From NCBI GenBank assembly GCA_040143965.1, contig JASJQH010006954.1:1-33008 (forward strand): a DNA stretch of 33,008 nt, in the 5' to 3' direction. This DNA is from Basidiobolus ranarum. Its lineage: Eukaryota. Under the pieces are notes generated by a model. That model searched no databases. It was not told where the DNA came from and saw nothing but the letters and a program-made list of their open reading frames with translations. Positions within the stretch are counted from its first letter, which is position 1, and each line of letters opens with the position of its first letter. The translations under genes were made by a program, and so were the position numbers. Shown one piece after another: positions 5,455 to 26,954 of this stretch.

Positions 5455-6881
5455 ATGGTCAACGCTAGTCAATTCTATTACACCTCTAAAGTTAACAACC
5501 GTAAGGTTGCCAAAAACCTTGGTGTTGACGCTGGTGTTATCTACCTCAAAGGCCATGTTAACACTGTGAAGTTTGACAGTGATACTGTAAGTCTCTGATT
5601 ATCTTCTAGCCCAACCTTTTTATCAAGTAAGCTGAACTTTTATCACTTTTACAGGAATTGCCTTTCGACCAAGATCCATACTTTTTCTACATGACTGGCG
5701 TGGAGCAACCTGGATACGAGTTCCTCTATGATATCGAGAGCGATAAAGCTGTTCTTTTCGCCCCCAGAATCCCCGAGGACGATATTGTCTGGATTGGTTC
5801 ACCCGAAACCAACGAACAACTAAAAGAAAGATATGATGTCGATGAGGTTAAATATACCGATGATTTGACTGTTTTCCTGAAGGAACTTTCCCCCAAGAGT
5901 GTCTACGTCTTAAATGGTACTGATGCTTCACATTTGGCTGAATTCCAAGCCAGTGTTGAGGAAACCAAGCTTGAAGAGGCCCTTAAAGAAGCCCGTATGT
6001 TCAAGTCTGAATTTGAGCTTGAAGTTATGAGAATTTCCAACAAGATTTCCAGTGATGCTCATATCGCTCTTATGAAGAAGATCAAGCCTGGTATGAATGA
6101 ACGTGAACTTCAAGCCTTGTTTGAATATGAATGCAATCGTCATGGTTCTATGCGTCAAGCTTACCTTCCCATCATGGCATATAGCAACAATGCTGCCACA
6201 TTGCATTATGGTCGTAATAACTGTGAAATGCCCGATGGATCTCACTTATTCTTGGTAGATGCTGGTGGTGAATACCATAGATATGCCTCCGACATTACTC
6301 GTACTTACCCTGTTGGTGGTAAATACACTGATGATGCTAAAACCATCTATAGCATTGTTTTAGACATGCAAAAGCAAGTTTTGGATGCGTTGAAGCCCGG
6401 AGTTAAGTGGGAGGATATGCATCGTCTTGCCAGCCGTATTGCCTGTGAAGGTCTTAAGAAGTGCGGTATTCTTAAAGGAGATGTGGATGAGATGATCGCT
6501 AAATTCGTTCCTGCTGCATTCTATCCTCATGGACTTGGACATTCCATTGGTATTGATACCCATGATGTTGGTGGCTATCCTAAGGGAGTAGAGAAAATCA
6601 ACGAACCAGGTATCCGTTACTTGCGTATGCGTCGTGATTTGAAGCCTGGCATGGTTGTCACCGTGGAGCCTGGAGTATACTTCTGCGATGCTATCATTGA
6701 ACCCTTCCTGAAGAACCCCGAGACTGCCAAATACTTTGATATTCCTACCCTTGACAGATTCCGCAAGGTTGGTGGAGTTCGTATTGAGGATAATGTTGTC
6801 ATTAAGGAAGATTCCATTGAGAACCTTACCACTGTTCCTAAAGAAATTGATGAAATCGAAGCCATCATGGCCTCTGCTTAA
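5455..6881 (+). CDS. Xaa-Pro dipeptidase (prolidase) / aminopeptidase P, peptidase M24B; join(5455..5586,5655..6881), 452 aa
   Basis: M24B motifs: DAGGEYHRYASDITRT, HGLGHSIGIDTHD, TVEPGVYF, GGVRIEDNV. N-terminal QDPYFFYMTG. GTAAGT..ACAG intron 5587-5654 restores an in-frame ATG at 5455. Confidence 0.95.
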
Positions 6882-8525: not shown

Positions 8526-9279
8526 ATTTCAAGAGACAAATAAATATATGTGAAGCAATTTTTTTAGTTACTTCCAGACTTGGGTATATTTCTTAAACCC
8601 AAGGAAATTCTTCGAATTAGGTAATCTTGGTGGTGGAAATAACTTCTACAGAGGAGTTCGAAAAGAAGGAATTTGGTGGAGGTTTATACTTTGAAAGTAT
8701 AATGGTACTTGTTTATCGATAGTCTTTTATGGTCTTGACTTAGAGTTGAATATATCTTTCGCTATTTCCAAGACTTCAATCTTTTTACGGTGGTAACACT
8801 ATAATCAATCTCCCCTTCCATAACCTCTTCTGTACTCCCCTTAATATTGGTAAATGATGGGCAAATGACCCTGACGTCAACTCAACATATCCCTTAATCC
8901 CTCCAGACCCTCGATATTTAAATGGTTTAAACATGGTTGAAATTGTATGGCAATAATGTAAATCCCGAATAATATTTATGGAATATTTGTAGATTTGAGA
9001 ATAACCAGCCACCAACAAGATAGGATAATAGAAGGATCATTCGAAACGGTCATAGCAATGAGTAACAGAAATGGGAACTGAAGCCCAAACCCAAATGAAA
9101 TTTCGGGATATTTTGAGTGTACGAAACTTCGTATTAAATATTTCAAACCACTAATTCACTTTATAAATTCGAGTAATTTCTAGGAAATCTCTATCAATTG
9201 TCTTGCTAATTCAATTGTATCTCACATCCCACATCCTATCTCATTTACTAAATCTTCTTTTAGTCTTGGCTCTATAATT

Positions 9280-9945
9280 ATGCATTCCACTGGTGTTCTT
9301 CTGTGTTTATTTTGGGTGTCCATAACCTTGGCTGCACCGGTAGCGAACAGATATGATACCGATGTTCAATTAGGAACTGGCGGTGGGAGTTATGGGGCTT
9401 CAAAGAATACATGGAATGACCAAGAGAGGACTTATGTGTATGGCGGAGGAGATGAAGATGGTGACGGGGATGAGGATGGGGATGGGGATAGTAATGATAC
9501 GGGTGCTAATGAAGATTATGATCACGGTTTCGAGGATGGAAAAAGGGCAGCCTACAAAGAAGGATATGCCGATGGAAAAGATAAAGGCCACTGGAAAGGA
9601 TTTAAAGAGGGCTCTAATCAAGGTCAACGCGAAGGTCATAAAAGTGGAAAAGTTGAAGGAGCTCAAAGGGGCTTAGATGATGGCTATTGGGAAGGTTTTG
9701 ATAATGGAGAGCAGGATGGTGAAGCTAACGGGGAAAAGCGAGGCTATGATGATGGTCATGGGATTGGCAAGAAGTATGGCTACGATCGCGGTTTTAAACT
9801 AGGTCTTGCTGCAGCTTTAGCTGAACAAGGTTCCGGAAACTACAAAACTCTGGAACAAAAGTTTGGTTCCATAGATGGCTTATCTGAAGATAATGATCAC
9901 CCCAACTATCGTGGCGAGGGAATGGGTGGTAATTCCAAATATTGA
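9280..9945 (+). CDS. Secreted Gly/Asp-rich protein with a long GxxxG (i+4 glycine) repeat
   Basis: Signal-peptide-like MHSTGVLLCLFWVSITLAAP, an acidic GDEDGD segment, then 21 consecutive xxxG units. Intronless 221-aa ORF. Confidence 0.8.
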   Translation: MHSTGVLLCLFWVSITLAAPVANRYDTDVQLGTGGGSYGASKNTWNDQERTYVYGGGDEDGDGDEDGDGDSNDTGANEDYDHGFEDGKRAAYKEGYADGKDKGHWKGFKEGSNQGQREGHKSGKVEGAQRGLDDGYWEGFDNGEQDGEANGEKRGYDDGHGIGKKYGYDRGFKLGLAAALAEQGSGNYKTLEQKFGSIDGLSEDNDHPNYRGEGMGGNSKY

Positions 9946-10356: not shown

Positions 10357-12358
10357 ATGGTAAGTCTACAAGCACAAACCAAAATATCTCTGCACTCTAT
10401 AGATATATCCATATTTTCTCTTGAAATTCTTATTTTACTTATGAGTACCTCTCTATTCTTTGCTCGAAAGTTCCCTTTTTTAACCACTTCTTTTATAAAA
10501 TAAAGTATCATCCCGAAGATTCTCCTAGCAGTGTCGATCTCGCGGCTGCTTATGAACATGAAGCTTTAGCACTCGAGCAAGAGGCTTCGGAACAGCATAT
10601 GATCTCTGGCTATGATGAACATGGGGGAATTGCTGTACAACACCATGTTCTTGGACAATCCCCTGAGACGTCAGATCATTCAGAACTATCTCAACTGCAT
10701 CCAGATGAAGTTACTCATGGAATACTACATTCACATATCAAGCATGAAGTTGATGAAATTTCTGTAAGTTAACTCCAATACTATATGTAAGGAGAGTTCA
10801 GAACACTAAAAAACCAACCATACATACGTACTGTCGATAGATGGATCCCGACGATTTCTCTACCATGAATCCTTCCATTTTAGCCAACTTGGATAATAAT
10901 TTACAAACCCTCGCTGGTTTAGTAAGTTTACCTCCACCTGAAAACCATTTATCCTCAATTCACAATCAATCCGCTACGGCTATGATGTTAACTTCCACTA
11001 TTCCTTGTAAAAGGAAAGATCGTGAACGTTGCGCTTGGACTCCTGAAGAAGACCATTTACTTAGATTGGCTGTTCAACTTTATGGTGATAAGACAGAAAA
11101 ATGGGCCAAAATCGCTGCTTGTGTGCCTGGTCGTACCAACAAAAATTGTCGGAAAAGGTGGTTTCATTCTTTGGATCCAAGCTTACGTAAAGGTGCATGG
11201 ACACCTGAAGAAGATGAACTCCTTAGACAAGGTGTGGAACGGTATCAAGGACAGTGGAGCAAAATTGCTGAAGCTATCCCGGGACGCACCGATGATCAAT
11301 GTGCCAAACGTTGGAGAGAAAGCTTAGACCCCTCTATTGATAGAGCAGAATGGTCTCACGAAGAAGACGGACTTTTACTTGAAAAATATGAAGAATTAGG
11401 AAGTCAATGGCAAAAGATCTCCCAGTTCTTCCCTGGGCGTCCTGGTCTACATTGTCGCAATCGGTGGAGAAAAATTCAAAGAAGTATGAATCAGAAGAGT
11501 CGTGAGAAAGAAAAGCTCACTCAAGCGTTAATGGCACCAGTTGAAAGCAAACTAACCCAAGAGATTCTCAATTCATCGGAATCCATGGTTAATGCCGAAT
11601 TTATTGCCATGTCGCATCCTGACAACATGCTACATCAGGCTGAGTTTCAACTAGGCGAGCATGAGGGGAAGGCTTATGGTTGTGGAGTAGACAACTGTAT
11701 AGCCAGTTTCATAGATTCAAGTGGACTCTTTTATCACATGAAAGTGTCTCATCCTCGAATAGATTCATCGCTACGACCATATAGATGTGGTCTGCTTGGC
11801 TGTAACAAAAAATACAAGAATATTAATGGTTTGACGTATCACATCAAGCATGCCAAAAACACTTCTGGCCATGGTAATTCCAATCTTCATGGTGGATTAG
11901 ATCCAATTGAGAAGCCCTATAAATGTCCGCACGAAGGTTGTGACAAAAGCTATCGTAACCCTAATGGGTTGCAGTATCATCAGACTCACGCCCACGGACC
12001 TGGAGAAGAGGAGATGCAGAAAGCATTCATTTGTTCTGTCGAGGGATGCCATAAGAGCTATATGAATCCCAATGGACTTGCTTATCATTTTCGGCATGGA
12101 CATCCGGAGGTGATTATCGATATCAATCTCGATATCAATCAATTGGTTTCTTTTATGATCAGTAATTGAATGGCTTAATTGATTTGCTTAATTATGTAGC
12201 TTCTTGACTCTAGTTACTATCTAGTTTCTGATGATACGCGTTTGACATCCGAGCATACAATCCACCATGAAACACTCACAGAGCCACTTGAACCCCATCA
12301 TCATGAATTACTCCGTGGACACGAGCTAACTGAAGATCAATTATCACCGCTACGTTAG
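10357..12358 (+). CDS. Transcription factor with three Myb repeats plus four C2H2 zinc fingers; exons ~10357-10359, 10506-10763, 10841-~12145, 12200-12358
   Basis: Three Myb/SANT repeats (WTPEED..W..IA..PGRT..C..RW) and four CxxxxC..H..H fingers, three with Y[K/R/M]NxNGLxYH. ATG|GTAAGT at 10357-10360 and GTAAGT at 10764 give in-frame upstream exons. The last donor (12110 or 12146) is uncertain. Confidence 0.9.
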
Positions 12359-15142: not shown

Positions 15143-16858
15143 CTAGTAGCCTACTAATTTACCCAGAGTGGGTGGTGGAGGGGGGAGCCTTTCAACACCA
15201 ACCTCAAATACAGCAGCCATGCCCATGATAGCATGTGGCGTGGCGCGGCATTGGAAAAGCCATACTCCTGGATTGTTAGCAACAAAACGGAAGACTCTCC
15301 AACCACAGGGAGAATGTGGCTCATTATGTACTCCTTGACTTTCCGCAGTTGGATACAATGTGATGATATCACGAGGGAAAGGTGGGTTATAGAGTCTGGG
15401 AGGTCTTCCAGGGTAGGCTCCCTTGCCACCGCCAAGATCGAACAATTTGTGTCCATGAAGATAGAAAGGATGCACGTCACAACGACCGTTTGGATCAGCG
15501 GTCAATTGAAGAACAACCTGAATTACCTCACCAAGTTGAATTGGATAGGTACCACGTCTTGGGTCATAACCATCTGCTGGTACTTGTGAATAGTCAATTT
15601 TACGAGACATTTGACCAGTATACAGATCATTAAGAAGTGGAGTTCTTGGATGTTCGTAGGTCACGTTGTTGATCACCATCTTAGTAGCAACTCCGACCAA
15701 ACCGCTACCCTGACCAAGCAATACTACAGTTGGAGTCATGATGAATTCGCGGTCATATTTGTATGGGAACTCAGGGACTGCTTCAGTTCGGTATGGCAAT
15801 TTGACGAATTTGTCAGTCTCCCACAGGAACTGTTGGGGAGGGACTGTTGGAAGCGACATCTGGTTGGGGGTTTCTTTAGTGTTAGGTTTTCCAGCCTCTT
15901 TATATTGCAAGATGGCTACACCATCAGCCTGATCAGCTGGGGCTTTCCATTCATAACCTGGTTCAGATTTCATGTAGTAAGTTCCGGGTCTTTGATTGGC
16001 ATGTACAAGAACTGAAAAACGTTGACCAGCATTCACTTCGATATGATCCGTTTGGAAAGGCTTCACGTACGAGCCATCTACTTCAATGACCGTCATTTTG
16101 TGACCACCGATCTTGAACCGGAAGAATGCTGCCATAGCTGATCCATAGATACGGAAGCGATAGGTCTTGCCACTCTCTACGGTAGTAACATCATGCTCGC
16201 AAGAAGTGCAAACTTTGTCCTCCTTTGATGCGCATTTGGTCTTGACAAGGTTCTTGCCGTTGATCAAAAGTGATTGAGGAGAGAAGATCCAACGGAAATT
16301 GGGCGACACTAAACCGGTAGTGATATCATCATCATCCTTATGGAAGAAGTCACTAAGAAGGATGTTTCGCTCTTCCTCATATTTGTAGATTCGAGGGCCC
16401 AGGTTGTCATCGACGACAAGCGCACCGAAGGCAGTCATACCATGAATACCAGTAGAAGCATGATAGAAGTAGGTACCGACTTGGTCACCTACATTTATCT
16501 CATAGCGATACATGGTTCCAGGAAGGATAGGCCATTGTGTCAAGCGAGGGACACCGTCAGAGAAGGGTGTGCCCTTATTGAGCATGCCATGGAAATGCAT
16601 AGAGACTACATCAGTGTCCATTTGATTGAGAACATTCACAACAAGAGTATCGCCAGGGTGAACACGAATCTCTGGGCCTGGGAGCTGATTGTTTATTAGC
16701 ACGACAAGTCTGCTGAAACAGTCAGGGGAGCGCTGATCCTGGGTGACGGTGAGGTTATATTCGACCACACCGGCATTGACCGTTAAAATCAAAGCTAGCA
16801 AGAAGCATAAGAAAGCTCCTGATCTTAATGATCGTTGCGGTGAGGTGAACTTTACCAT
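15143..16858 (-). CDS. Secreted three-domain multicopper-oxidase-like protein (laccase/ascorbate-oxidase family) with degenerate T2/T3 copper ligands, intronless 571 aa
   Basis: Signal peptide and family motifs INNQLPGPEI, HFHG, DGVPRLTQWPI, GTYFYH, LLINGK, GKTYRFRI, GQRFSVL, HPFYLHGH, ANNPGVWLFQCRATPHAIMGM. Confidence 0.92.
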   Translation of the reverse strand: MVKFTSPQRSLRSGAFLCFLLALILTVNAGVVEYNLTVTQDQRSPDCFSRLVVLINNQLPGPEIRVHPGDTLVVNVLNQMDTDVVSMHFHGMLNKGTPFSDGVPRLTQWPILPGTMYRYEINVGDQVGTYFYHASTGIHGMTAFGALVVDDNLGPRIYKYEEERNILLSDFFHKDDDDITTGLVSPNFRWIFSPQSLLINGKNLVKTKCASKEDKVCTSCEHDVTTVESGKTYRFRIYGSAMAAFFRFKIGGHKMTVIEVDGSYVKPFQTDHIEVNAGQRFSVLVHANQRPGTYYMKSEPGYEWKAPADQADGVAILQYKEAGKPNTKETPNQMSLPTVPPQQFLWETDKFVKLPYRTEAVPEFPYKYDREFIMTPTVVLLGQGSGLVGVATKMVINNVTYEHPRTPLLNDLYTGQMSRKIDYSQVPADGYDPRRGTYPIQLGEVIQVVLQLTADPNGRCDVHPFYLHGHKLFDLGGGKGAYPGRPPRLYNPPFPRDIITLYPTAESQGVHNEPHSPCGWRVFRFVANNPGVWLFQCRATPHAIMGMAAVFEVGVERLPPPPPTLGKLVGY

Positions 16859-17189
16859 CGTTGCGACAATACTACTATCATGGCTGAAAGTGTCATTTTA
16901 TAAGAGTTCGCTCCTGAAGATTCACTCACCCTTGGCTTCAAAGATGAAACAATTATGCAAAGTCATAGAAACGCAAGAAACGGTTTCCAAACCCCGTATG
17001 CAAACCACCCAATGGGAGTACATCCTTTTATTGACCAGATATAATGAGATCGAGTGAGGCAAATTCGCCTAATCAACGTATCCCAATCACGTTGCATCCA
17101 AGTCTTATGATGCATACATTCACACACTCACACACATACGCATAAATTCGAATATCTGTGCCATTAAAGAGTTGTTAGATTTATTAACA

Positions 17190-19029: not shown

Positions 19030-19867
19030 ATGCAACATCAAGATAAGACACTACCCGTACCCTCGCTCATCAGTGTTGAAAAACCGATGGGGGCGGGTAA
19101 CTTTATCTCCATTACCAACGGTATAGAGACTGCCTCATCTCCTTTAGATTATCAAAAGATTCTAGCGAACAAAGAAATGATTCAAGATACGCTTGTTGGA
19201 TCACTGATAGGAGTTTCAGCGACTCTAGTAATCGCCGTTGGGGTGTTGATCTATTTAATCATTTGGATTCATAAACGCAAACAAAGCCACTCCAAGCAGG
19301 TCTCTATGTCTCTTCTGTATACCAATTTTGATATTCTGTAATAACTTCTTGCTTTGACTTTAGAGATATGAAAATGGCACCAGATTTTCATATGATATCT
19401 CTCCGTCGAATAGAGATTCCGTCATCCCGGATGACTTTCTGCCGGGACAAATGAACACCTTGGCTTCTCCTACGACTGAGCTTCCGCAGCCTTTACCGCC
19501 ATCTCAGAATAAAGAGAAGACAGTTCGGACCAGTTCATTGATGTATAAAAATCCCTATCACCTTCAACGCTTAGGCGACCAAATTCCTACAACAGAGCCA
19601 ATCGCTACTCCCAGGACTTTCACTCGGACTACCTCTTGGATAATGAGTAGGCTTTCAGCTACGAATATTTCCCATGTGGTTGCTGCTCCTAGACGACCAA
19701 GACCGGAGCCTATTGATACCCAGACGTACACCCATAGTGAAAACAACATAACCACCCCAATTACCATGTACCATTCTCCACTTCCACCGTGGACAAAGCC
19801 TCGGCCAAACAGTATACTTATTACCCATGTCATCGATGAAGTACAAGCAGCGAATACAGGAAAGTAG
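19030..19867 (+). CDS. Hypothetical single-pass membrane protein with Pro/Thr/Ser-rich tail; join(19030..19299,19364..19867)
   Basis: TM segment LVGSLIGVSATLVIAVGVLIYLIIWI followed by HKRK. A 64-nt GT..TAG intron joins ORF 19030 in frame to ORF 19451. Confidence 0.7.
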
Positions 19868-20207: not shown

Positions 20208-23200
20208 TTAATTCTTTCGCGTTCTTGACCGAGTTTGACGTACTGAAATCTTAGTAGTCGTAGAGTCTTTGGAGCGGGTTTCAGGCTTGGAGGTTTCGGA
20301 TGCCTTTGCTCGCTTACGTGTGACAGGCTTGGCGGTATCCTCTTCTTCCGCCTCAGCCTTGCGCTTACTTACTTTAGTATTCCTTGTGCGCTTGGAGGTA
20401 ATTTCATCAGATTGTACATCTTCATGTTTAGCCTTAGTTGAGACCTTTGACCGGGTTTTGGTAGGCTTGGCATCTTTAGATTTCTCTTCTACAGGTTCAT
20501 CCTCATCCGAGGCATCGGAACGCTCGCTTTTCTTGGGGCTAGAGTTACTATCCTCCTGCTTAGAGTCCTTTTTAGTACTCTTACTAGCCTTAGTACGTTT
20601 TGACACGCGTTTAGGTTGAGAGGGCTCTTCAACAGTTTCTTTACTTTTACGTGTGCTGCGCTTAACAGGCTTTTCCTCCTTTTCGTTTTCATCCTCAGCT
20701 GTACTGGAAGATTTGTTTTCCTCAGCCTTTGTTTTTTCCAAGAGTGTTTCATCCTCAGATGCAGGCTTCGTAGAGCGCGTGGAGCGAGTCTTTTTTACAA
20801 CAGTTTTAGCGGCGCGAACAGGTCGATTGGCACGACGTGTGGTAATCTTTGGCTTTTCATCAGATTCTTCATCGGTTTGATCATTCTCGGGCTCATCAGT
20901 GGAAGCTACCTCACGTTTGCTACGCGCTTTAGATTTTTTCTCCGTTTCAATTTCTACCACTTCCTTAGTACTTGATTCTTTTTGATCAAGCTGAGATGCA
21001 CTCTTTGATGAAGCTGAGCGTTTCCCACGACGTGCTGTGGGTTTGACCTCGGATTTGCTATCAAGAGCCAACTGCTCAACTTCCCTCGTACGAGTACGCT
21101 TACGGCTTGTCTTGACTTTGGGTGGCTTATCCTCATCGACGCTCTCTTCATCTGATTTTGAACTGTTGTGGTCATTCGTAGTAACGTTTTTAATTGTTTG
21201 GGGAGATTCAGGTTTGATATCAGCCTTTCTACTCTTTTTCGGCTTGTGATTAATGATTGGTGATTCTGAAATGGGCTCAGTATCAGATTCATTCCTTTTC
21301 TCTTTCTCATCCTCTTGAGTCTTTTTGGCTCTCTTTGATCGCGACTTGAGATTTGGGACATCTTCTTGGTCATCTTCCTCCAATGTTCGTTTAGTACGAC
21401 GAGTAGGTGCTTTGGTTTTGACGCGGGTTTCTTTAGCTGTGTCTACCTCTAAACTTTCTTCAGCATCACTTGCCTGACTTTGCTTTGCATTAGCCTTCTT
21501 CGTTCGACGAGAGGCCTTATGCACTCCAGCGGTTTCTGATTTCTCCACAGAACTTGTATCCACATTCTCTTGCTCAGGTTCAGGAGCCTGATTGTTCATC
21601 TCAGAAGGATCTACTTCCTCCTGCTCAGACTGCTCAACTACAAGCACAGATTCTTTTTGCGCTCTTTGACTGGTAGAACGAGGACGAACGGGAGTGTCAA
21701 TTTCTTGGGCTGACGATTCTTTATTAGTAGCTCTAGCTGTTGATCTAGTTGAGCGAGTACGAGCGGATGTTCGGACTTTGCCTGTTTCTTGATTCTCCGA
21801 TCGAGTGGTTCGCTTGCTAGATCTGGTAGCTCGGCTCTCTACTACAGCTTCAACCTCAGATTCCGAATCCTGGTTAGATTGACTGGCTTTACCTGCGGAT
21901 CTTGTAGATCTGGCTTTGGTTGGTTTTGCATTAGAAGTTGGCTTCACAGGTGAGGGATTGCGAATTTCAGGAGTGTTATCAACTTCCTTGGAATTACGTT
22001 TTGGTGTTTCGATTTCAACACTGGATAATATACCAACTGAACTAGAGCGGTTTCTATTAACAACACTTTCTACTTGTCCATCGTTGCTGGATTCCTTCGC
22101 ATCCTCTTCATGTAGATCCTTACTGTTGACAGCCTCAGTAGCTGATTTAGTCAAGTCGACCTCATCTTCATTTTGAGTATCGTCATCACTGTTAGAATTC
22201 TCATTATCGATGAGGTTCTTTGTCGGTTCCACAATGGACTCGCTTTGGTGAGGTACAGTTTCATTTTCGTCCATAGTTTCATCACTATCACTGATTGACG
22301 CTTCAATAGAGTCGTGCTTTTGGGTGTCTTCCTTAGAGTCACTGACCAATTCCTCGGCCTCAACATCCTCGTGGTTTTCCTCAGTAAGGGTCAGATCTTT
22401 CTGCTCAATATCGTCATCTTTTTCAACGACCACATTAGTCATATTATTTTGAAGGACAGACCCCTTGGTGTCTTCGTTTTCATTCTGATCCTCTTCAACA
22501 AAATCGACCTGGCTAACCTCATTCTCAGAAGCGTCTTTATCAACCTCATCGTCAGAGTTGGCCATCTCTTCATCTTCGTCCTTCTCATCTTCAACGAGCT
22601 CGATCAGGTTAATGTCTTCTTTTGGAGTACTCTCATTAACTTCATCATCCTCCTCGGCAACAAGATTGGCCTGATTGACTTCAGCTTCGTCGTCTTGAGA
22701 AGCGTCTTCGTCAACTTCGTCATCAGAATTGGCTACCTTTGTAGCTTCTTCATCTTCGTCCTTATCATCTTCAACAAGCTCGGCCAGATTAACGTCTTCT
22801 TCTGGAGCACTCTCATTAACTTCATCATCCTCCTCGGCAACAAGATTGACCTGATTGATTTCAGTTTCGTCGTCTTGAGAAGCGTCTTCGTCAACTTCAT
22901 CATCAGAATTGGCTACCTTTACAGCTTCTTCATTTTCTTCTTTCTCATCTTCAACGAGTTCGGTCAGATTAACGTCTTCTTTTGGAGCACTCTCATCATC
23001 GCTCTCCTCCGCAACGAGATTGACCTGATTAATTTCAGCTTCATCGTCCTGAGGAGCGTCTTCATCAACCTCATCGTCAGAGTTAGCTAACTCCGCGGCT
23101 TCCTCAATTTCGTCTTTTTCGTCTTCAACAAGCTCGGTCTGACTAACGTTAAACTCATCATTCATTGGAGTGTCTTCGTCATCTTCACTGTTTTCCGCAA

Positions 23201-26200
23201 CAGCATCAACTTCGTTAATTTCAGTTTCATCGTTCTGAGGAACGTCTTTATCAACCTCATTGTCGGAGTTAACTATTTCCTGAGGTTCTTCATGTTCGTC
23301 CTTCTCACCTTCGATGAGCTCGTCATCCATTGGAGTGTCTTCATCAACTTCTTCACTTTTCTCGGTGATGAGGTCAATCTGAATATGATCTTTTTCCTCG
23401 TCTAGAGAAGCTTCTTCATTGATCTCTGTCTCATCTTCAGTGTTAACTACTTCTTCGGCTTCTTTTTCGCCCTTCGCCTCTTCAACAAGCTCAGTCTGAC
23501 TAACTCCAAGTTCGCCATCGTTTGAAGTGTCTTCAGCAGCCTCAGTGTTTTCCTCTTCAATGACATTGATCTCATTAGTTTCGATTTCTTTGTCCTGAGG
23601 AGCGTCTTGATCAACTTCGGCATCAGCGTTGACTTCTTCAATTTCCTCGTTCTGCTCTTCTTCGATTAACTCAGCGGGAACAACTTCACATTCGTCATCT
23701 TTAGAAGCGTGCTCTTCAACCTCATTATCGGAGTGAATTGCCTCTTCTTCATACTGGTGAGCGACACTCTCAGCACTCTCTTGTGTAACGGATTCCCCTT
23801 GTTGGATATCACTTTCGATGCTCTCCTCCGGCTTTTGCTCGACTTGTTCAACTTCATCATTGACGGAATCTTCTATTTCATGCTCATCCTCATCAACTGA
23901 ATCCTTATAGATATCTTGATCATTATCTCCAGCATTCAAAGAATCTTCATGTTCGGAAGTTTCGTTATCATTGATAGAATTCATAACTGGAATCACCTCT
24001 TCCGAAACAATTACCTCCGATGTGATCATATCTGCTTGAAGTAAATTCAAATCAACCGAATTACTAATAGTAGTGGTTTCATGAGATTCTGATAAAACCA
24101 TGGATTCTTCTAACTCGGAAAGATCTTCATCGGTTGGGGTATGTATGACGTTCTTGGAGGCAGAAAGAGGGAGATCTTTGGATTTTGAGGGAGTATCAAA
24201 GGTGGTCGAATGGGTGGAGTTGTGAATGGGAGTACGAATCGATTTGGATACAAGTGGGGACTCGGGGGAATTATTCTCATGTACTGGGGTAGATAGTTTG
24301 GGAGTGGCAAGAAGATCGGCTATAGCTGTACCTTCAATGAAACTCTCAGTATCCATATCCATGACTCTACTCTTGTCAGATTCAAGAACATTTTCTACTG
24401 AATGTTTATCCAGTGAATCTGGCATCGTTACTTGTTCATTAATAGAATCGGGTGTATAAAATTCTTCGTGATGAGATCTGGGTGATGGTGTTGCTAAAAG
24501 ATTGGCAATAGCTTCACCTTGACGAATACTTTCACAAGAATAAGCGGAAGAATTGATGGATTTACGACTAATGGGCGTAGTATCTTGCGGTAATGTATGG
24601 GTTGGTGAATCAACGGACATAGGTGAGGAAGGATTGGAGAAATCCTTTATCGAAGGAGTAGCGAAAAGGTCAGCAATATATTGCCCTTGCTTCACACTCT
24701 CGGATGGACCTGTCGGTGTAGACATGGTTTGTGGGGGAGTTGAAGGTATGTTATGCTCTGAGGTCGATGGTGATGTTAAATGATTATCGCTTGCATCATT
24801 ATCTTGAGCATCGTCAGCAATGTACGAATCAGATTCCTCTTTTTGAATAAATACAGGTGTAGTGACCTCACAGTTGGATAGATCTTCAGTTTGTGGATCA
24901 AGATTTTTCGTGATACAGGGACTGCGGGTAGGGGTGGCGGTGATAGGGGTAGACGAAGTAAAAACGTTAAGGTTGGATTCGACAGTCAAAGTATCATTAG
25001 CAGCAGAATCATCTTCATCCATAGGAGTATCGAATGACTCGGAAGCCCCTACTCCTTGAGAAATCGAAGGTTCTGACAGCTCAACTACTTCTTTCTCAGG
25101 TGTGAGCAAATCTGAAGTGCTCTCGTCATTAGCGGTGAGTACATTGTCGGTCTGGCCAACTGCTGAAGGTCTCAATGCTTCACTTTCTACCGAGGAATCC
25201 ATGGTTTCTGTATCAAAGTCGTGGATTTTATCGGATGAATTCATATGATTCTCAGCCTCAGCTGACTCAGCAATACCGTTTTGGTCGTCAAACTCTATGT
25301 TAGACTCTTCCTTCGAACTCTGTGAAGGACATGAACTACTCGATAAGCTAGCGACCTCTTCCGTCTCCACTGCAGCAGTGTTCAATAGACTCTTGGCTAG
25401 CTCCATTGAGTCAGTGAGCCCATCATTAGAGTCCAGGGTAATAGGGCTATCCTCCTTGGCGCGAAATTGCTTCAGAACATTCTTCAGCAATGAAGAAGAT
25501 GGAGTAGTGGGCCTAGAAGTGGTGAAATCCTTTTGAGGAGTCTTCTGAGCGGAAGCAATATTTCTGCCCTTCTTCAATGGTGAATTCGGAGGAAGTGATT
25601 TGTCAAAAATCTCTGGACTTAAATTAGGTCCAAATGTCACGTGTCTAACTGATGTGACACTACTTGGCTCTGGAGATATCTCGAGTGCATCTCTTAGTCT
25701 ACTTTGGCCTAATCCAGGTGTCTCTGATTGAGTTTTCCTTCCACGTTTCAGTGGAGAGTTTGGTGGAAGAGTTCGGTCATATATCTCTGGGCTTAGATCG
25801 GGACCAAAGGTGACCTTACGACGAGGATTCTCTTCCGTGGTGTCGCTGTGGTCGAGAACCACGGGATTGACTTCCAAAGAATCGGTGACAGGCTCAACGG
25901 CCAAGAGACTAGCATGATCTATTAAGGACGATCTTCGTCGGGAAGTACGACGACTGGGAGAGCGAGGTTGCATAAGTGATGTAGTATCCAACAACTTTCT
26001 CTTTTTGGGACTAGTGCTGTTAAAGAGGAACAATGATTTTGGTAATTTGGGAGATTTTGCAAGTTCGGCTGTCGGATTGGTACTGAAAGATTCGAGGTTT
26101 TGTTTGAAGTCTTCATGCTCACCACTATGATGAGTTAAACCTTGATCATTCTTCATTTCTTCTGTAGATTCAGTTCCGTTGTTAACAACTGACGGAATGG

Positions 26201-26954
26201 TCTCTGTACCATGATTTTTGTGAGCTTGCATAAGAATATTGCTTGATGTACTCAATTTGTCACTAATAGTGTCCAGTTGGGTTTCACACTTGGCAATTGC
26301 TTCTTCAGTCTTGGTCTGAATGCTACCTATACTGTCGTGTTGCTTTACATTGGAACCAGCGTCCGAATTCGTCTCTTCCATAATCTTGGTTCTCTTGTGA
26401 GTGTGTCCATCATCCTTGGATTCCGGCTTTGAACGGTGAATTCCAAATAGTGGTTTGGCCACTTTCTTGGATGGTTCGGTATATGGGGCCCTTGTGTGAC
26501 CTTTGACCTGATTAGTCAAAGGAGTAGCAGTGAGGTTAAATGATCTAGTGGTTGACTTGGATAATGGAGTGCTTGAAGTAGCAGTAGATTTACTAATGGG
26601 ACGGATAGGTTTAGACGGATCGGAGGCAACTTTATTCGCATTAGAGGAAGTGTATTCAAAGCGAAAAGTTCGGTCGTGAATTGTAATGATGTCTAGATTT
26701 TTCAGAGCTCTTCGGTCCTGCTCACCGAGCTTTTCTCCATTTATCAGAGTTCCATTCTTGCTAAAATTTATAAGGGTAGCCTGACCCTCTTTTTCGAAGG
26801 AAATTTTACAATGATTGTCGGCGATTTGAGGTAAATATATACGCACATCACAAGTGAGTTGCTTTCCAATGAGGAATTCCTTTTTGTTGATTGGAAACGT
26901 TTTAAAGTCACCCCCAACTCTACGAGTTACTATGAAGCTTCCATAATATCCCAT
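20208..26954 (-). CDS. Ki-67-like protein: N-terminal FHA domain, two PP1-binding (RVxF-type) modules, long disordered acidic then basic regions; 2248 aa, intronless CDS
   Basis: FHA-like N-terminus (FLIGKQLTCDVRIYLPQIADNHCKI..NGTLING..DIITIHDRTFRFEY). RRKVTFGPDLSPEIYDRTLPPNSPLKRG and RHVTFGPNLSPEIFDKSLPPNSPLKKG resemble the Ki-67/Repo-Man module RRVSFGGHLRPELFDENLPPNTPLKRG. Confidence 0.88.
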   Translation of the reverse strand: MGYYGSFIVTRRVGGDFKTFPINKKEFLIGKQLTCDVRIYLPQIADNHCKISFEKEGQATLINFSKNGTLINGEKLGEQDRRALKNLDIITIHDRTFRFEYTSSNANKVASDPSKPIRPISKSTATSSTPLSKSTTRSFNLTATPLTNQVKGHTRAPYTEPSKKVAKPLFGIHRSKPESKDDGHTHKRTKIMEETNSDAGSNVKQHDSIGSIQTKTEEAIAKCETQLDTISDKLSTSSNILMQAHKNHGTETIPSVVNNGTESTEEMKNDQGLTHHSGEHEDFKQNLESFSTNPTAELAKSPKLPKSLFLFNSTSPKKRKLLDTTSLMQPRSPSRRTSRRRSSLIDHASLLAVEPVTDSLEVNPVVLDHSDTTEENPRRKVTFGPDLSPEIYDRTLPPNSPLKRGRKTQSETPGLGQSRLRDALEISPEPSSVTSVRHVTFGPNLSPEIFDKSLPPNSPLKKGRNIASAQKTPQKDFTTSRPTTPSSSLLKNVLKQFRAKEDSPITLDSNDGLTDSMELAKSLLNTAAVETEEVASLSSSSCPSQSSKEESNIEFDDQNGIAESAEAENHMNSSDKIHDFDTETMDSSVESEALRPSAVGQTDNVLTANDESTSDLLTPEKEVVELSEPSISQGVGASESFDTPMDEDDSAANDTLTVESNLNVFTSSTPITATPTRSPCITKNLDPQTEDLSNCEVTTPVFIQKEESDSYIADDAQDNDASDNHLTSPSTSEHNIPSTPPQTMSTPTGPSESVKQGQYIADLFATPSIKDFSNPSSPMSVDSPTHTLPQDTTPISRKSINSSAYSCESIRQGEAIANLLATPSPRSHHEEFYTPDSINEQVTMPDSLDKHSVENVLESDKSRVMDMDTESFIEGTAIADLLATPKLSTPVHENNSPESPLVSKSIRTPIHNSTHSTTFDTPSKSKDLPLSASKNVIHTPTDEDLSELEESMVLSESHETTTISNSVDLNLLQADMITSEVIVSEEVIPVMNSINDNETSEHEDSLNAGDNDQDIYKDSVDEDEHEIEDSVNDEVEQVEQKPEESIESDIQQGESVTQESAESVAHQYEEEAIHSDNEVEEHASKDDECEVVPAELIEEEQNEEIEEVNADAEVDQDAPQDKEIETNEINVIEEENTEAAEDTSNDGELGVSQTELVEEAKGEKEAEEVVNTEDETEINEEASLDEEKDHIQIDLITEKSEEVDEDTPMDDELIEGEKDEHEEPQEIVNSDNEVDKDVPQNDETEINEVDAVAENSEDDEDTPMNDEFNVSQTELVEDEKDEIEEAAELANSDDEVDEDAPQDDEAEINQVNLVAEESDDESAPKEDVNLTELVEDEKEENEEAVKVANSDDEVDEDASQDDETEINQVNLVAEEDDEVNESAPEEDVNLAELVEDDKDEDEEATKVANSDDEVDEDASQDDEAEVNQANLVAEEDDEVNESTPKEDINLIELVEDEKDEDEEMANSDDEVDKDASENEVSQVDFVEEDQNENEDTKGSVLQNNMTNVVVEKDDDIEQKDLTLTEENHEDVEAEELVSDSKEDTQKHDSIEASISDSDETMDENETVPHQSESIVEPTKNLIDNENSNSDDDTQNEDEVDLTKSATEAVNSKDLHEEDAKESSNDGQVESVVNRNRSSSVGILSSVEIETPKRNSKEVDNTPEIRNPSPVKPTSNAKPTKARSTRSAGKASQSNQDSESEVEAVVESRATRSSKRTTRSENQETGKVRTSARTRSTRSTARATNKESSAQEIDTPVRPRSTSQRAQKESVLVVEQSEQEEVDPSEMNNQAPEPEQENVDTSSVEKSETAGVHKASRRTKKANAKQSQASDAEESLEVDTAKETRVKTKAPTRRTKRTLEEDDQEDVPNLKSRSKRAKKTQEDEKEKRNESDTEPISESPIINHKPKKSRKADIKPESPQTIKNVTTNDHNSSKSDEESVDEDKPPKVKTSRKRTRTREVEQLALDSKSEVKPTARRGKRSASSKSASQLDQKESSTKEVVEIETEKKSKARSKREVASTDEPENDQTDEESDEKPKITTRRANRPVRAAKTVVKKTRSTRSTKPASEDETLLEKTKAEENKSSSTAEDENEKEEKPVKRSTRKSKETVEEPSQPKRVSKRTKASKSTKKDSKQEDSNSSPKKSERSDASDEDEPVEEKSKDAKPTKTRSKVSTKAKHEDVQSDEITSKRTRNTKVSKRKAEAEEEDTAKPVTRKRAKASETSKPETRSKDSTTTKISVRQTRSRTRKN
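22540..23640 (-). repeat. ~180-bp (~60-aa) acidic coding tandem repeat inside the Ki-67-like gene, ~6 copies of decreasing identity
   Basis: 22681-22740 and 22861-22920 are nearly identical (180-nt offset). Unit NSDDEVDEDASQDDE.E.NQ.NLVAEE...E.VNL.ELVEDEK.E.EE. Confidence 0.9.

Follow-up and report, generated by a model that had tools for sequence, protein, structure and literature searches.

A predicted Ki-67/bridgin family protein with tandem PP1-docking modules, encoded in a Basidiobolus contig

Vertebrate Ki-67 is described as a highly basic or net positive protein that carries an FHA domain, a docking module for protein phosphatase 1 (PP1) made up of an RVxF motif and a KiR-SLiM, FKELF-type repeats and an LR domain (PMC8354752; bioRxiv 10.64898/2026.06.18.733134). 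Its places in the cell are the rim of the nucleolus and the periphery of mitotic chromosomes, and NIFK is bound by its FHA domain. Bridgin (Bgi1) of Cryptococcus neoformans is reported to consist of an FHA domain, a putative docking site for PP1, an unstructured acidic domain in which 13 repeats lie, and a basic C-terminus, and to be recruited to the outer kinetochore; its basic domain binds chromatin (Sridhar 2021, PMC7794384). The basic region of human Ki67 can substitute for that domain, so it is charge and not sequence that matters there. The same study names Ki67 as the metazoan homolog, and records bridgin homologs both in fungi (across Basidiomycota, and also in Pneumocystidales and Taphrinales) and beyond them. 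The gene described here belongs, by sequence, to this family. It lies on contig JASJQH010006954.1 of Basidiobolus ranarum (assembly GCA_040143965.1), positions 1 to 33,008 of which make up the stretch analysed, here called the window.

RepoMan (CDCA2) probably arose by duplication of Ki-67 (PMC8354752). Ki-67-like proteins have been reported from Malassezia, Mycoemilia (Kickxellales), Paramicrosporidium and others, some species having two PP1 motifs (Haider 2026, bioRxiv 10.64898/2026.06.18.733134). The words 'bridgin' and 'kinetochore' do not occur in that preprint, and the bridgin and Ki-67-like-protein literatures on this one family are not cross-linked. A literature search on Basidiobolus and Ki-67 returned a single paper, clinical and unrelated. 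Fungal relatives of Ki-67 are already published (PMC7794384; bioRxiv 10.64898/2026.06.18.733134), and the supplements of these studies may already list early-diverging fungal homologs. The evolutionary argument of a preliminary description of the gene, that a Ki-67-type system predates the animal-fungal split, is right, then, but not new; the window protein adds one well-preserved member to a family known to extend into fungi.

The gene is a single open reading frame (ORF) of 2248 codons plus stop, without interruption. With a probability of about 65%, its product would be a native fungal member of the Ki-67/bridgin family, acting as a chromatin-tethered PP1 scaffold under the control of mitotic kinases. 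This is the best-supported reading. What is conserved in the protein are the FHA domain and the KiR-type modules, the latter duplicated with their regulatory sites retained. The features that carry it are as follows.

20208..26954, minus strand: whole coding sequence, 2248 codons plus stop in one exon; B. ranarum protein P0002 has the same first and last residues
26625..26954, minus strand: FHA domain of Ki-67 type (aa 1-110), from Pfam, PDB matches and tree
25731..25820, minus strand: PP1-binding module 1 (aa 379-408), with KVTF, phi-phi EI and a KiR-SLiM matching at 11/14 specified positions
25557..25646, minus strand: PP1-binding module 2 (aa 437-466), with HVTF, EI and a KiR-SLiM matching at 12/14; tandem duplicate of module 1

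As P0002 starts with identical residues, both the start codon and the placing of the FHA domain at the N-terminus look right.

Features shared with Ki-67 are the N-terminal FHA domain of Ki-67 subtype with RVxF, phi-phi and KiR-SLiM downstream, a very long body that is disordered and has numerous S/T-P sites (47 in the window protein), internal tandem repeats within a single exon, and a C-terminal region of positive charge. The window protein and two mammalian-type sequences also have in common a T-R-S...R/K motif at the extreme C-terminus. The window protein differs from Ki-67 in having two PP1 modules rather than one, in having no detected KI67R/FKELF repeats and no Leu/Arg-rich LR domain, in its charge (isoelectric point (pI) 4.5 and net charge -249, against a strongly basic Ki-67), and in Arg to Lys and Ser to Ala changes at canonical FHA positions. 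The Ki-67 domain order suggested in the preliminary description thus stands for the FHA domain and the PP1 dock that follows it, and does not extend to Ki-67 repeats, an LR domain or a basic charge.

Bridgin, which is likewise fungal, has its FHA domain, PP1 dock, acidic unstructured repeat region and basic C-terminus in the same order as the window protein, and the features by which bridgin homologs were screened are all seen here (FHA at aa 1-110, an acidic stretch at aa 501-1560 with eight repeats, and a basic end). The acidic region has a pI of 4.65 in bridgin and 4.05-4.1 in the window protein, which is also about 950 aa longer, has a tail of pI 9.1-9.9 against 11.2, and carries two full KiR-type modules where bridgin has a short, unconventional PP1 motif. 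RepoMan/CDCA2 supplies the best PDB match to the PP1 region (5ioh, E 6e-7) and has Thr as the 'x' residue of RVxF, as does the window protein, but it is described without an FHA domain, which places the window protein on the Ki-67 side of the family. The early-diverging fungal entries bearing the Ki-67 name (B. ranarum, Coemansia, Mortierella, Podila and Lunasporangiospora) combine FHA and PP1_bind as the window protein does. Other fungal Ki-67 entries differ from it in having one module, with 8-10/14 KiR-SLiM positions, instead of two with 11-12/14, and the B. ranarum entry P0002 differs in lacking an acidic repeat array that makes the window protein about 820 aa longer. The duplicated PP1 modules, the acidic repeat expansion and the altered FHA residues are lineage-specific features.

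Pfam recognised the FHA domain at aa 28-92 with 45.7 bits (cut-off 20.7). When aa 1-520 were searched against PDB, the best matches were the Ki-67 FHA structures 2aff and 1r21 (E about 1e-15), followed by the FHA families of Dun1 (5e-6), CHFR (5e-5) and Rad53 (3e-3). Over this domain, identity is 40-48% to vertebrates and 36-39% to other fungi. The canonical residues G-R-S-H-N-N, given as GRSHNN in the preprint (bioRxiv 10.64898/2026.06.18.733134), contact phosphothreonine, according to the same source and to general knowledge of FHA domains. They read G-K-A-H-N-N in the window protein and G-K-S-Q-N-N in P0002; across a family alignment of 149 FHAs, the Arg column holds R in 140/149 sequences, the Ser column S in 134/149, and the His column H in 141.

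Two trees were built: a quick one from 149 FHAs, and a careful one from 46 FHAs under LG+C20. The window FHA paired with that of B. ranarum in both, with support of 99 in the quick and 100/99 in the careful tree. In the latter, the FHAs of Ki-67 type all fell into one clade (97/93), separate from the 10 outgroup FHAs and comprising, alongside the window FHA, 14 vertebrate Ki-67, five other animal, one choanoflagellate and 12 other fungal sequences. The assignment of the domain to the Ki-67 type, for which the preliminary description had proposed a phylogeny, is borne out by the tree and by the PDB search, in which Ki-67 FHAs reached 1e-15 and the next family 5e-6. Within the clade, the vertebrates form a group (92/94) inside an animal cluster (83/81), from which the Basidiobolus pair is excluded, its place being among fungal lineages of unresolved order; the fungi as a whole do not form one clade. 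The FHA domain of Kwoniella, which represents the bridgin lineage, is inside the Ki-67-type clade of the careful tree, and in the quick tree it forms a sub-cluster with the window protein (92). A position of Coemansia inside the vertebrates was seen in the quick tree only, and was not reproduced by the careful tree. Approximately unbiased (AU) tests rejected neither fungal monophyly (p-AU 0.108) nor a clade of vertebrates plus Basidiobolus (p-AU 0.196); the 113-column alignment is too short for a deep placement of the FHA domain. Nesting among tetrapods was rejected (p-AU 0.0019), with the reservation that the forced tetrapod grouping may add to the likelihood cost.

The PP1-docking module, earlier placed as a single copy near aa 378, is confirmed by Pfam and proves to be two tandem copies. 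PP1_bind (PF15276) scores 74.7 bits (cut-off 27) over two stretches, and both copies pass the same cut-off when scanned singly (aa 365-433, 45.9 bits; aa 432-500, 54.1 bits). The region also aligns to PDB peptides of CDCA2/RepoMan (5ioh, 6e-7; 5inb, 1e-6) and Ki-67 (5j28, 4e-6), in agreement with the proposed Ki-67/CDCA2 kinship of the module. All three peptides were crystallised on PP1. The module has been defined as RVxF, phi-phi and the KiR-SLiM FDxxLP(P/A)N(T/S)PL(R/K)(R/K)Gx(T/S)P (Kumar 2016, PMC5005033). The KiR-SLiM core up to the Gly is complete in module 2, and has Tyr for Phe in module 1. Both modules have Thr as the 'x' residue of RVxF, equivalent to RepoMan T394, and both keep the S-P sites of LSPE and NSPL, equivalent to RepoMan S400 and T412. 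In RepoMan, T394 is an Aurora B site at which a phosphomimetic lowers binding about 25-30-fold (PMC5005033); the Thr and the S-P sites may be used for regulation in the fungus as well. Other fungi match the KiR-SLiM at 8-10/14 positions, against 11-12/14 in the window modules, and a regular-expression scan of 154 listed proteins found two modules only in the window protein and P0002.

P0002 is a B. ranarum protein of 1430 aa annotated as 'antigen identified by monoclonal antibody Ki-67', and its look-alikes in the protein atlas are Ki-67 clusters (score 0.93). It is 56% identical to the window protein over the first 558 aa (80% in the FHA domain, 30% in the tail, with the same ending) and has both PP1 modules; about 820 aa of the middle, corresponding to the acidic repeat array, are missing from it. 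P0002 is the ortholog of the window protein. Word-based searches returned 46 proteins (one from B. ranarum, 42 vertebrate, three unnamed) and, for shorter relatives, five bird fragments; the vertebrate Ki-67 matches covered 19-21% of the query, with no similarity in this search outside the FHA domain and the PP1 modules.

Fungal relatives beyond B. ranarum surfaced only in an exhaustive HMMER scan with aa 1-520, which returned 730 relatives at E <= 1e-3, of which 103 reached E <= 1e-10. Thirty of the 730 were given names. They include chytrids (Gorgonomyces, Chytriomyces, Borealophlyctis), Jimgerdemannia (Endogonales), Bifiguratus, Mortierella, Podila and Lunasporangiospora (Mortierellomycota), Coemansia (Kickxellales) and Kwoniella (Tremellales) among the fungi, and, outside them, a choanoflagellate, a sponge, a tunicate, arthropods, a snail and vertebrates. 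When 17 of the named relatives were scanned with Pfam cut-offs, FHA and PP1_bind occurred together in 16, including 10 of the 11 fungal ones (Kwoniella has FHA alone), two PP1_bind stretches were seen in B. ranarum only, and KI67R matched 0/17. The family is present in several fungal phyla as well as in animals and a choanoflagellate, and it is therefore reasonable, as had been suggested, to date its origin to before animals and fungi split. Annotations of such homologs do already exist, as the preliminary description surmised: several fungal relatives, B. ranarum included, bear the Ki-67 name in databases. Its proposed link to open mitosis did not hold up as a specific one, FHA plus PP1_bind being spread from chytrids to Mortierellomycota.

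Two relatives have unusual domain combinations. A 1256-aa protein of the shark Callorhinchus milii (P0126), labelled CDCA2 by one source, has an N-terminal FHA domain and PP1_bind (65.8 bits), which suggests that the FHA domain may have been lost later in the RepoMan/CDCA2 paralog. The choanoflagellate Barroeca monosierra has a 1189-aa protein (P0169) with FHA, PP1_bind and three SAP DNA-binding domains (Pfam, 103 bits); with these, a folded chromatin-binding end would take the place of the basic tail.

The remainder of the window protein, in which disorder was judged from composition, contains the following features.

25989..26012, minus strand: SPKKRKLL (aa 315-322), a basic cluster resembling a classical nuclear localisation signal, with a full cyclin-dependent kinase (CDK) consensus site S-P-x-K in front of it; conserved in B. 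ranarum, function inferred
24075..25454, minus strand: S/T-rich acidic disordered region (aa 501-960), pI 4.1, 24 S/T-P sites, no Pfam family
22404..23750, minus strand: eight hyper-acidic tandem repeats of about 60 aa (aa 1069-1517), from jackhmmer and TRF, no Pfam family
20211..22157, minus strand: mixed-charge tail rich in K, R, S and T (aa 1600-2248), with several K-K/R-x-K/R clusters, no Pfam family
20211..20240, minus strand: C-terminal T-R-S...R/K motif (last 10 aa), common to part of the family

The N-terminal parts are basic, with pI values of 9.4 for the FHA domain (aa 1-110), 9.3 for the linker (aa 111-370) and 10.3 for the two PP1 modules (aa 371-500). The pI then falls to 4.05-4.1 over aa 501-1560, of which aa 961-1560 form a hyper-acidic block (242 D+E, 24 K+R), and rises again to 9.1 in the tail (aa 1561-2248; 150 K+R, 138 D+E) and 9.9 in the last 300 aa. 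The whole protein has a pI of 4.48. The full CDK consensus is present at 12 S/T-P sites out of the total of 47, and 34 of the 47 are in aa 301-939. The body described earlier as S/TP-rich is so in that part, and is not uniform, in view of the hyper-acidic block. Scanned with Pfam in three pieces, aa 501-2248 matched no family at E <= 0.1.

The internal repeats noted earlier are real at both the DNA and the protein level. TRF found a 180-nt unit present 3.3 times at 22567-23149 (86% matches), corresponding to the three youngest of the eight protein units, each of which was found by jackhmmer at E <= 1e-13. The array is a lineage-specific expansion, missing in P0002. The K/R-rich C-terminus, quoted correctly before, is the end of the protein, and the tail is presumed to bind DNA or chromatin non-specifically. 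A motif T-R-[ST]...[RK] within the last 25 aa occurs in 12/83 long family members, where 2.7-2.9 were expected (maximum 7 in 500 shuffles). Its carriers include mammalian-type (two), Kickxellales, chytrid and Kwoniella sequences and the window protein, and some of these 12 sequences are closely related among themselves. The tails cannot otherwise be aligned, and the motif is a hint that their ends are conserved.

KI67R (PF08065) gave no match at E <= 1 to the whole protein or at E <= 0.1 to sub-fragments. One short motif resembles the Ki-67 repeat core by regular expression, a link without statistical support.

24291..24689, minus strand: three copies of [DN]-L-[FL]-A-T-P (aa 762, 818 and 880), found with a post-hoc regular expression; shuffle expectation 0.01 per protein

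A profile was made from 55 sequence windows, each centred on the repeat core, in a set of 80 vertebrate-type proteins, and a reciprocal one from 23 non-vertebrate units. The window protein scored -1.9 bits with the vertebrate profile (shuffle maximum 3.2) and -4.1 bits with the non-vertebrate profile (94/300 shuffles as high), leaving its link to Ki-67 repeats unsupported.

The profiles did find such units elsewhere. Protein P0155 of the chytrid Borealophlyctis nickersoniae has, at aa 696-845, eight tandem units of about 20 aa with a core G-V-R-E-[LM]-x-K-T-P that matches the vertebrate Ki-67 repeat core. The vertebrate profile scored 18.3, 16.9, 9.1, 8.3 and 7.8 bits on it, the best reached by 0/300 block-shuffles (maximum 4.5). 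Sequences from Gorgonomyces, a tunicate and a snail scored 7.4-8.8 bits (shuffle maxima 2.9-4.6), and the reciprocal profile gave 9.6-9.7 bits on bat Ki-67 repeats (0/300 shuffles). Repeat-core units were also noted in P0157, P0066 and P0130. A core like that of Ki-67 repeats is thus not confined to vertebrates and occurs in chytrids, among others; Pfam KI67R misses these units. This core may be unreported, since the disordered part is stated in the preprint to be without sequence conservation (bioRxiv 10.64898/2026.06.18.733134). Three units, [TA]-G-[LIV]-[RK]-x-[ML]-[LF], whose likeness to this core has weak support, were seen in Kwoniella newhampshirensis P0180 (aa 835-882; 0.2-1.3 bits, 4/300 shuffles as high), and these might correspond to the 13-copy consensus motif of bridgin.

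If the protein is a PP1 scaffold, its basic tail would bind DNA or chromatin non-specifically, by analogy with the domain swap between bridgin and Ki-67, and its two docking modules would bring in the catalytic subunit of PP1, perhaps in two copies per molecule. Phosphorylation would turn PP1 docking off in early mitosis, and docking would be on again at mitotic exit. Candidate switch sites are the RVxF Thr of each module, of Aurora type in Ki-67/RepoMan, and the pair of S-P sites per module, of CDK type in RepoMan. The FHA domain would provide a protein-protein contact that sets the place of the scaffold on chromatin, perhaps with a weakened phosphothreonine pocket. The site of action may be the chromosome surface, the nucleolus or the kinetochore.

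Several observations weigh against the scaffold reading. The final two KiR-SLiM positions, (T/S)P, are missing from both PP1 modules. Two of the six canonical FHA residues are changed (Arg to Lys, Ser to Ala), and phosphothreonine binding may be weak or lost. The presumed chromatin-binding tail is mildly basic overall (pI 9.1, with 150 K+R against 138 D+E) and has no LR domain; only two LR dipeptides occur in the 2248 aa (aa 420 and 594), none of them in the tail. Net charge is -249 in the window protein and +26 in P0002, a gap of about 275 units that is due to the young eight-unit acidic array, and charge-based models are not obviously conserved even within the genus.

That the protein is a true functional Ki-67, forming a surfactant brush around mitotic chromosomes and organising nucleolar material as the nuclear envelope fragments, is possible but unlikely. 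The Ki-67-type FHA domain with KiR-SLiM, the layout of a long disordered brush with a tail, and a KiR-SLiM nearer to the vertebrate consensus than in other fungi all agree with it. So does the biology of Basidiobolus, which is described as having very large nuclei with a large nucleolus and a mitosis within 'nuclear and cytoplasmic membrane fragments' (Adl 2019, PMC6492006), as well as numerous small chromosomes and a spindle that arises from the nucleolus (Robinow); the reports of PMC6492006 are what keep a perichromosomal role alive. Such a role should not be assumed, however, because the family is broad across fungi, and so not tied to the Basidiobolus style of mitosis, and because bridgin, the sole fungal member studied experimentally, acts at kinetochores (PMC7794384). 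The failure to find Ki-67 repeats with Pfam KI67R (E <= 1) or the profiles, the lack of an LR domain, and a charge of opposite sign to that of Ki-67, which is not shared with P0002, also speak against it. A more specific version is more doubtful still: a chromosome-coating surfactant with two PP1 per chain, whose brush would be at -249 here and near neutral in P0002, and in which [DN]-L-[FL]-A-T-P would represent degenerate ancestral repeat cores. Were it true, the coat function of Ki-67 would be ancestral to animals and fungi and independent of the sign of the brush charge.

A bridgin-like role is improbable to a similar degree as that of a functional Ki-67. The protein would then be a linker recruited to the outer kinetochore, its FHA domain and acidic region binding the KMN network and its basic tail the centromeric DNA. 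The shared layout and the grouping of the Kwoniella FHA with the window protein favour this, as does the standing of bridgin as the only fungal member characterised experimentally. Against it, the PP1 site of bridgin is termed an 'unconventional putative' one and Kwoniella has no PP1_bind, whereas the window protein has two full modules; PMC7794384 also links the role of bridgin to the loss of CCAN linkers (CCAN, the network constitutively associated with centromeres) in Basidiomycota. An origin of the gene outside the fungus, either as vertebrate contamination or by transfer from an amphibian or reptile host into a gut fungus, is largely refuted and very improbable. The FHA identity to vertebrates, which equals or exceeds that to other fungi, an unusually vertebrate-like KiR-SLiM, the absence of introns and the non-rejection of a forced clade with all vertebrates (p-AU 0.196) could be read in its favour, but nesting among tetrapods is rejected, and the vertebrate group and the animal cluster of the free careful tree both exclude the window FHA. 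There is a B. ranarum ortholog and homologs in many other fungi, similarity to vertebrate Ki-67 ends with the FHA domain and the PP1 modules, and, as set out below, codon use agrees with that of Basidiobolus-like neighbours, one of which is also a single long exon.

Returning to the scaffold reading, no other fungal sequence examined has a KiR-SLiM as vertebrate-like as that of the window protein, and its tandem duplication offers a test of two PP1 per scaffold. The charge gap of about 275 units between close orthologs gives charge-based models of Ki-67 function a natural test case. With its large nuclei and open-like mitosis, Basidiobolus could help to decide whether the ancestral role was chromosome coating, as in Ki-67, or kinetochore linkage, as in bridgin.

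Four neighbouring genes were identified in the window.

5631-6881: aminopeptidase P (M24)
9184-9945: Yae1-domain protein
10841-12169: three-repeat Myb protein with C2H2 fingers
15143-16897: multicopper oxidase

The multicopper oxidase shares 81% identity with a protein of Basidiobolus meristosporus, its next matches being Basidiobolus paralogs, Endogonales, chytrids and Mucorales; the aminopeptidase P, Yae1 and Myb/C2H2 genes are of eukaryotic housekeeping type. A non-fungal contig had been named beforehand as a finding that would refute the Ki-67 interpretation, but by these matches the contig is fungal and of Basidiobolus type. GC content at third codon positions is 0.37 in the target gene and 0.31-0.43 in its neighbours, and synonymous codon preferences likewise agree; by codon use the gene is native to the fungus. 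One of the neighbours is likewise a single long exon. The multicopper oxidase belongs to a multi-copy Basidiobolus family, with at least four B. meristosporus and at least three B. ranarum paralogs among the matches.

Upstream of the target gene on the same strand, the preceding gene ends about 650 bp away. The cell-cycle promoter element ACGCGT occurs three times in the window (1.84 expected) and not at all in the 650 bp upstream of the gene, and no tRNAs were found in the window. Directly downstream, at 19030-19867 on the plus strand, are two small ORFs of 103 and 138 aa; one of the two was scanned with Pfam and matched no family, and the 103-aa ORF includes a hydrophobic stretch. The gene also contains antisense ORFs and others that are out of frame, such as 22299-23090 (plus strand) and 20954-21373 (minus strand); these are probably by-products of its repetitive codon composition.

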